Positions 38,623 through 39,377 of a DNA stretch of 64,000 nucleotides are shown here, piece by piece. The DNA is from Escherichia phage D5505: the sequence record MK327929.1, one strand, 5' to 3'. The notes under the pieces are model-generated. The model ran no database searches. It saw nothing but the letters and a program-made list of their open reading frames with translations, and was not told the origin of the DNA. Each line of letters starts with the position of its first letter. Position 1 is the first letter of the stretch. The translations under genes were made by a program, and so were the position numbers.

Positions 38623-39171
38623 ACCCAAGAAAACATCTACTGATCGTTGATACCACTGCAAATCCAAATAGCCATTACGCACATTAAACTGATAGAACAT
38701 ATGACAAGGCGGTAATGCCATCTGCTTGAGTTCAGCTGGATTCCATGCTGAAACAATTTGACGCCTATCATTTGGCAGTTTTTTAATACGATCAATAACT
38801 TCTATAATTTGGTCTACACCACCAAAATCACGCCACTGTTTTCCATAAATTGGACCAAGTTCACCGCTATGGTATCCTAAATCTTTTGCTTGATTTTCGT
38901 AATTTTCATCCCAAACTGTTTTGCCTTGGATTAACGAATCATGTTGAATTAATCGCAAATCATTGACATTTGTGCTTCCCGATAAAAACCAAAGCAGCTC
39001 AGCAATGCAAGCTTTCCAGGCGAGCTTCTTAGTTGTTACTGCAGGAAAACCTTTAGTTAAATCCCAGCGTAATTTAGTACCGAACAAAGCAATTGTTCCT
39101 GTGCCTGTTCGGTCATCGGTTTCGTAGCCATTTTCCAGGATATCTTTAATTAAAAATTGGTATTGTTTCAT
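38623..39171 (-). CDS. td: thymidylate synthase, exon 1
   Basis: from ATG 39171 (MKQYQF...), ends ...VDVFLG at the 5' splice site. Confidence 0.85.
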
Positions 39172-39377
39172 TAGTTCATCCAAGAATATGTAGAAGGATA
39201 TTTGGCAAAGTTAGGCTTATATCCTAATTTAACCATTTGTTTTGCTTTGTGAGTAAATCCTAAAGAACGCTCACCTTTAAGATATTGTTTTGGTGTCATA
39301 GGCCCTTGATGCATCTGCCGACAAATAAAAAGGGCCATAGCATTAGGAACATCCTTAACTTTTAATTTATTGCTCAT
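39171..39377 (-). CDS. hypothetical 68-aa basic protein between frd and td
   Basis: ATG start in ATGA overlap with frd stop; stop overlaps td ATG (TAATG). Confidence 0.5.

Follow-up and report, generated by a model that had tools for sequence, protein, structure and literature searches.

A small gene lodged between frd and td

We analysed a 64,000-nucleotide stretch of Escherichia phage D5505 (sequence record MK327929.1), referred to here as the window. An earlier note on this DNA had described a 68-codon open reading frame between frd and td, joined to both neighbours by overlapping start and stop codons. Reading the sequence confirmed the frame, hereafter ORF68, on the minus strand, and its ATGA and TAATG overlaps. 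The frd gene ends in AAA TGA and the ORF68 ATG sits inside that ATGA, while the ORF68 stop codon has one base in common with the td ATG. The features at the junction are as follows.

39374–39955, minus strand: frd, encoding dihydrofolate reductase (193 aa), 96% nucleotide identity to T4 frd
39374–39378, minus strand: AATGA direct repeat (5 nt), upstream copy, at the frd stop and ORF68 start
39171–39377, minus strand: ORF68, 68 codons plus TAA, a member of PHROG 9550
39168–39172, minus strand: AATGA direct repeat, downstream copy, at the ORF68 stop and td start
39171–39169, minus strand: td ATG, sharing one base with the ORF68 TAA (TAATG)
38620–39171, minus strand: td exon 1, read to the in-frame stop at the intron start

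T4 (MT984581) has a direct ATGA overlap of frd with td and no open reading frame in between, and the original T4 record from the 1984 era, M12742, is among the exact matches to this junction. The T4 overlap described in the earlier note is thus correct, and ORF68 is missing from T4. The two AATGA copies are spaced 206 nt apart, and removing the DNA between them in silico yields the junction of T4 and IME08, recreating the T4 architecture base for base. Direct comparison gives the same length difference between the window and T4, 206 bp from the ORF68 ATG to the td ATG, in agreement with spans of 801 versus 595 bp. What had been called a precise 204-bp insertion is therefore base-precise, with a corrected length of 206 bp.

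The td gene is split in the window, with exon 1 (95.5% nucleotide identity overall to T4 td exon 1) ending near 38620, an I-TevI frame at 37754–38491 and an exon 2 frame at 37295–37609. Within 37000–40200 every Rfam family, that of group I introns included, stayed below its gathering score, and on this ground we rejected the idea that a structured RNA takes the place of a gene here. A tblastn search of the window found no second ORF68 copy.

As far as its sequence can tell, ORF68 has the makings of a member of a coupled operon, with a start/stop overlap on each side. A scan of 39171–39377 showed nothing that resembles a promoter or a terminator, and we discarded the idea of an internal td promoter within ORF68 for want of such a site. 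ORF68 would thus share a transcript with its neighbours frd and td, and its translation would be coupled to theirs. The 25 nt preceding the ORF68 ATG are identical to the 25 nt preceding the td ATG in T4, so ORF68 starts in an initiation context that works in T4; by lying in the frd stop, its ATG would take over the context that T4 uses for td. Downstream, the terminal codons TGG ATG AAC TAA contain a candidate ribosome-binding sequence.

39175–39181, minus strand: GGATGAA, Shine–Dalgarno-like, in the last ORF68 codons (W-M-N), 4–5 nt before the td ATG

These codons would supply td with a ribosome-binding sequence and a TAATG restart. The junction TGGATG(A/G)ACTAATG is kept in JS10, Marfa and 4S, and CIP9 has a GTGA overlap instead.

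ORF68 is conserved among T4-type phages

Compared with orthologues in JS10, Marfa, CIP9 and metagenomic relatives, ORF68 has a dN/dS of 0.08–0.24, with dS of up to 0.9–1.4 and substitutions concentrated at third codon positions. The PHROG 9550 profile matches it from end to end (E = 3.7e-45; residues 1–68 on profile positions 1–68), and tblastn recovered homologues in 237 phage records. By this combination of selection, full-length family match and number of records, ORF68 is, beyond chance, a genuine small gene of T4-type phages. The probability that it is instead a chance open frame within a non-coding spacer is negligible. Such a reading could appeal to the shortness of ORF68 and to records in which it is unannotated (JS10, JS98, Paracelsus), but the strong purifying selection seen in its dN/dS refutes it in our judgement, and its length and both overlapping junctions are kept across genera, with homologues of ~31–44% identity in unrelated myoviruses and metagenomic phages.

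The gene is also already catalogued in databases, with no function attached; a 'hypothetical protein' annotated in ACG-C40 is 100% identical to the ORF68 product. Annotation of the family is uneven. The orthologue is present but unannotated in the GenBank records of JS10 (L016 2001–2207), JS98, Paracelsus and SH7. Elsewhere it has been labelled 'flagellar biosynthesis protein' (PYPS2T) or 'DUF4858' (Shinka), labels that we set aside because a Pfam search of the near-identical window frame returned no family. Two copies are interrupted: in IMG/VR contig L015 (~893–1100) an extra A in an A-run shifts the frame after codon 30, and in Shigella phage sb4 (L026 901–1107) there is an in-frame stop at codon 54. 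The td gene is fragmented as well in the sb4 record, and sequencing error is likely. In the alignments examined, His43 (39249–39251) is common to the window phage and ACG-C40 only; this position is Arg or Lys in close T4-type copies and other residues in distant members.

Orthologues lie directly upstream of td, overlapping the td start, in four other lineages.

Dhakavirus JS10: 97% protein identity to ORF68
Marfavirus, Marfa gp177: 81% protein identity
Kanagawavirus CIP9, gp059: 66% protein identity
Serratia phage 4S: 60% protein identity

More distant relatives, at ~31–44% identity, occur in Phapecoctavirus (phAPEC8 gp235) and metagenomic phages, where their genes sit among small early or replication-region genes away from td. 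The phAPEC8 gp235 protein also matches PHROG 9550. This family brings together the ACG-C40 protein, Marfa gp177, CIP9 gp059 and phAPEC8 gp235, and ORF68 is a member that shares their length, charge and conserved motifs. PHROG 9550 itself has no assigned function or fold. A profile search of 1.84 billion representatives returned 11 matches only, all small phage-type proteins except P0026, with no domain fusions. P0026 (1402 aa, highly repetitive) gave six matches to profile residues 9–29 at E = 3e-9; it has the appearance of a repeat artefact and we did not retain it as a relative.

Three alternative states of the junction

Comparing the frd–td junction across public T-even-type genomes revealed that the T4 direct overlap is in the minority and that most genomes carry a different gene, a 115-aa open reading frame. 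The locus is small and plastic, and its three states are interchangeable.

ORF68: 132 Tequatrovirus and Dhakavirus records spanning the whole frd–ORF68–td query
115-aa ORF, PHROG 1928, 416 bp with spacers: T2, T6, RB3, RB14 and AndreasVesalius; 363 records at at least 90% identity
Direct overlap: T4; 32 records, about 15 of them T4 or laboratory derivatives

Because duplicate records and laboratory T4 derivatives are among them, these counts run high, although the ranking of states is clear. At the protein level, ORF68 is found at 90% identity or more in 134 records. The earlier note had treated ORF68 as an insertion. With about 132 public records and orthologues upstream of td in four other lineages, it is neither unusual nor private to this phage. 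It is the direct overlap of T4 that is rare: most natural T-evens carry a gene at this position, and the T4 arrangement appears to be derived and stripped down.

The PHROG 1928 gene of T2, T6, RB3, RB14 and most Tequatroviruses occupies the same slot as ORF68 and, like it, is absent from T4. A 9-nt direct repeat that contains ATGA, TAAATGAAA, lies on either side of it, much as ORF68 is flanked by a short repeat. The two proteins are unrelated in sequence, and the PHROG 1928 gene has spacers on both sides whereas the start and stop codons of ORF68 overlap those of its neighbours. The PHROG 1928 gene accompanies ORF68 rather than replacing it in three phages, with one copy ahead of the ORF68 orthologue in Marfa, one in 4S and two in CIP9. 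Because PHROG 1928 and PHROG 9550 genes both lie between frd and td in these three phages, we regard the two families as old residents of the interval. The copies in CIP9, an Enterobacter phage (L005 1326–2004), are tandem, diverged genes, gp061 being T6-like (44%) and gp060 Marfa-like (44%); with the ORF68 orthologue beside them, they indicate that the interval can hold three small genes. Some records name the 115-aa frame 'putative homing endonuclease' (AndreasVesalius, L003 1847–2194, and other BASEL records). It has no Pfam match, and PHROG 1928 is an unknown-function family.

Aligning the 416-bp block of T6 (L002 1828–2239), which is bounded by TAAATGAAA, with the T4 junction (L001 1815–1835) bears on how T4 came to lack a gene here. 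From the T6-like td 5' end of T4 and the 9-nt repeat we infer that T4 is a T6-type junction minus the block, which suggests that the T4 lineage may have undergone a repeat-mediated deletion of the 416 bp. A second block, of ~560 bp, lies upstream of frd in the window (39971–40533, minus strand) and has two small open reading frames.

39955–40200, minus strand: small ORF, 81 aa
40212–40544, minus strand: small ORF, 110 aa

T6 matches this block at ~93% identity, and T4 is without it, having only ~34 bp there. Since the upstream block is missing too, T4 is, compared with its relatives, reduced on either flank of frd. Small non-essential early genes that vary among T4 relatives are a general pattern (Petrov et al. 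2010, PMC2993671). The T4 plastic-region frames frd.1–frd.3 and nrdA.1 resemble ORF68 in being small, tightly packed, early-operon genes of variable presence. They differ in that genetic or expression data exist for these T4 frames; ORF68 is absent from T4.

A Dhakavirus-like tract in a T4-type backbone

Nucleotide identity between the window and Dhakavirus JS10 changes sharply along the locus, rising from 81% in frd to 97.1% in ORF68 and falling back to 79% in td exon 1. More finely, ORF68 together with td nt 1–40 is ~97–100% identical to Dhakavirus, whereas adjoining frd and td sequence reaches only 78–88%. Differences from Dhakavirus amount to ~3% of ORF68 sites and 0–1 of 40 sites in td nt 1–40, versus 22% in frd and 12–30% in td just outside the tract.

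39136–39377, minus strand: Dhakavirus-like tract at its minimum, ORF68 plus td nt 1–36

On the left, frd stays T4/T6-like throughout its final 120 nt, with 0–2 differences versus more than 20 for Dhakavirus, and the last diagnostic site falls 7 nt before the frd stop. On the right, td nt 1–60 are 1–2 nt from Dhakavirus and 6–9 nt from T4/T6, a relation that is reversed in td nt 61–120; this places the right-hand crossover somewhere from td nt 37 to about nt 75. IME08, a Dhakavirus with no ORF68 and a direct ATGA overlap, carries this td 5' haplotype (Phe6, Leu12) as well, and outgroups carry the T4/T6 state at most of the td 5' diagnostic sites. Other ORF68-bearing Tequatroviruses (YwIITB1, KNP5 and sb4) have the same mosaic, and the combined ORF68-end/td-start sequence is present in 150 records.

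T4virus and JS98virus share a genome-wide average nucleotide identity (ANI) of only 67–72% (PMC5885020). Given a Dhakavirus-like tract against so low a genome-wide identity, a single import of ~245–280 bp is the best reading. The earlier note had supposed that the segment was gained in this lineage, and a Dhakavirus-type ORF68 and td 5' tract in a T4-type frd/td backbone supports such an acquisition. In the model that we favour, ORF68 and the first ~40–75 nt of td would have come from a Dhakavirus-like phage in one import that later spread within Tequatrovirus. The left joint would fall in the 6-nt AAATGA where frd and ORF68 meet, and the right joint would be a homologous crossover inside td. 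It is also possible that the crossover fell inside ORF68 and replaced an older resident allele, which would make the event a substitution of alleles and not a gain. JS10 and IME08 differ by the same 206-bp presence/absence within Dhakavirus, with the same AATGA bounds, which argues that the coupling signal acts as a microhomology joint for precise gain and loss. Repeats of this signal would make gain or loss of the cassette base-precise and leave expression of frd and td undisturbed. Taken as a whole, the account of an accessory gene with coupled expression at a three-state locus, imported from a Dhakavirus-like phage and encoding a basic protein, is one that we consider probably right.

Two other histories of the locus deserve weighing. 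A purely vertical one, with ORF68 ancestral upstream of td, deleted in the lineages of T4, T2 and T6 and never transferred, has in its favour the orthologues upstream of td in Marfavirus, CIP9, 4S and Dhakavirus at dS ~0.9–1.4, the co-residence of PHROG 1928 and PHROG 9550 in CIP9, and flanking AATGA repeats that would permit microhomology deletion. We nevertheless judge it very unlikely, given 97–100% identity of ORF68 and td nt 1–40 to Dhakavirus next to neighbours at 78–88%, and a td 5' haplotype linked to ORF68 that is Dhakavirus-specific. Deep ancestry and recent import are compatible, and the mosaic contradicts only the absence of transfer, for this lineage. The alternative of selfish, homing-type cargo, in which a site-specific endonuclease cleaves junctions that lack ORF68 and repair then copies the gene in together with short flanks, would account for converted flanks that are very short (<7 nt on the left, ~40–75 nt on the right) and for precise boundaries in two genera. 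The locus also adjoins the I-TevI-bearing td intron, and trans-homing by a neighbouring endonuclease is documented in T4 (PMC2790892). There, in co-conversion and trans-homing involving I-TevI and mobE, a heterologous block moves with short flanking tracts, as here; the ORF68 cassette differs in that no endonuclease is encoded in it or beside it. Pfam and NCBIfam searches detected no nuclease domain or motif (GIY-YIG, HNH, LAGLIDADG or His-Cys box) in ORF68 or its relatives, no free-standing endonuclease gene adjoins it, and the I-TevI site is ~550 nt off. With ORF68 also found beside intron-less td genes in JS10, MN04 and YwIITB1, and with no terminal inverted repeats, we consider homing highly improbable. 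To our knowledge, 68 aa is shorter than any homing nuclease domain with its DNA-binding part.

The same distribution speaks to the td locus as a mobile-element hotspot, to which the earlier note had linked ORF68. ORF68 occurs with intron-less td in those three phages, and the intron of T4 occurs without ORF68. As gene and intron are found in all combinations, we rejected a connection with the td intron or I-TevI. A transposon or insertion element was likewise rejected: no terminal inverted repeats were found at the cassette ends and a transposase is absent, the only repeat being the 5-nt AATGA coupling signal.

A small basic protein with a predicted helical fold

The ORF68 product is an 8-kDa protein with a pI of 10.1, a net charge of +10 and a conserved aromatic C-terminal tail. 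High charge is a family trait, with a pI of 9.75–10.6 and a net charge of +7 to +16 in all 24 members examined. Modelled with AlphaFold2 (AF2) from a shallow alignment, the protein scored poorly (pLDDT 56); a 23-sequence alignment raised pLDDT to 84, with a pTM of 0.60 and predicted helices at residues 13–24, 29–38 and 43–49.

Homology searches attached no function to this protein. Foldseek against the PDB found nothing significant (E ≥ 2.9), its best matches being a homeodomain and a Cro hybrid, and a structure search of BFVD returned only the orthologue of ORF68 itself. A sequence-profile search of the PDB gave no match at E ≤ 10. Pfam and NCBIfam have no family for ORF68, and PHROGs offers 'unknown function' only. 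PADLOC, whose library covers defence and not anti-defence, gave no match for four family members, and our literature search found no paper on ORF68. Homeodomain and Cro-like helix–turn–helix folds are small, basic and three-helical, as the predicted ORF68 product is, but neither sequence nor structure gave a significant match that would place ORF68 in the helix–turn–helix or homeodomain group.

ORF68 would be dispensable for basic growth, as T4, T2 and T6 do without it. From its charge, size and operon position, we tentatively propose a dispensable accessory protein that would act early in infection by binding nucleic acid or an acidic partner, a possibility to which we attach limited confidence. 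It seems unlikely, if worth keeping in mind, that ORF68 serves host takeover or anti-defence, with a benefit that varies by host strain: the gene is patchy, small, in an early operon and exchanged between genera, in a region in which several small frames vary among T4 relatives, but it has no similarity to any characterised protein, the PADLOC defence library came up empty and the literature yielded nothing. A dedicated partner of thymidylate synthase or dihydrofolate reductase (DHFR), either an adaptor in a dNTP-synthesis complex or a regulator that binds RNA to control td translation, would fit a gene that, for all the saturated synonymous divergence across five T4-type genera or lineages, is always at the td start and overlaps it, and that by its junctions would be co-translated with both enzymes. 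We find this improbable, because synteny in T4-type genomes is generally rigid, the same pathway operates without ORF68 in T4, T2 and T6, and homologues of ~31–44% identity in Phapecoctavirus and metagenomic phages lie away from td. More specific still is the notion that ORF68 represents a new small basic three-helical fold with an aromatic tail and a specific activity, as a nucleic-acid-binding or enzyme-bridging factor at the DHFR/thymidylate-synthase step or as a host-specific counter-defence; we rate it as quite unlikely. Either activity, if true, would explain how ORF68 is exchanged between genera while fixed to the td start.

Implications

ORF68 is a common allele, already catalogued, at a small and plastic locus, and only its function is of interest; these points are modest and leave the current understanding of phage biology unchanged. 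For T4 biology, it matters that the textbook ATGA overlap of frd and td is a minority and apparently derived state. The AATGA stop/start overlap would double as a recombination joint, so that neighbouring genes may be left undisturbed when a gene is gained or lost, and a tract of ~250 bp appears to have crossed between two genera that otherwise stand at ~70% ANI. In an uncharacterised family without known fold relatives, the ORF68 product would be a cheap first target for functional tests.
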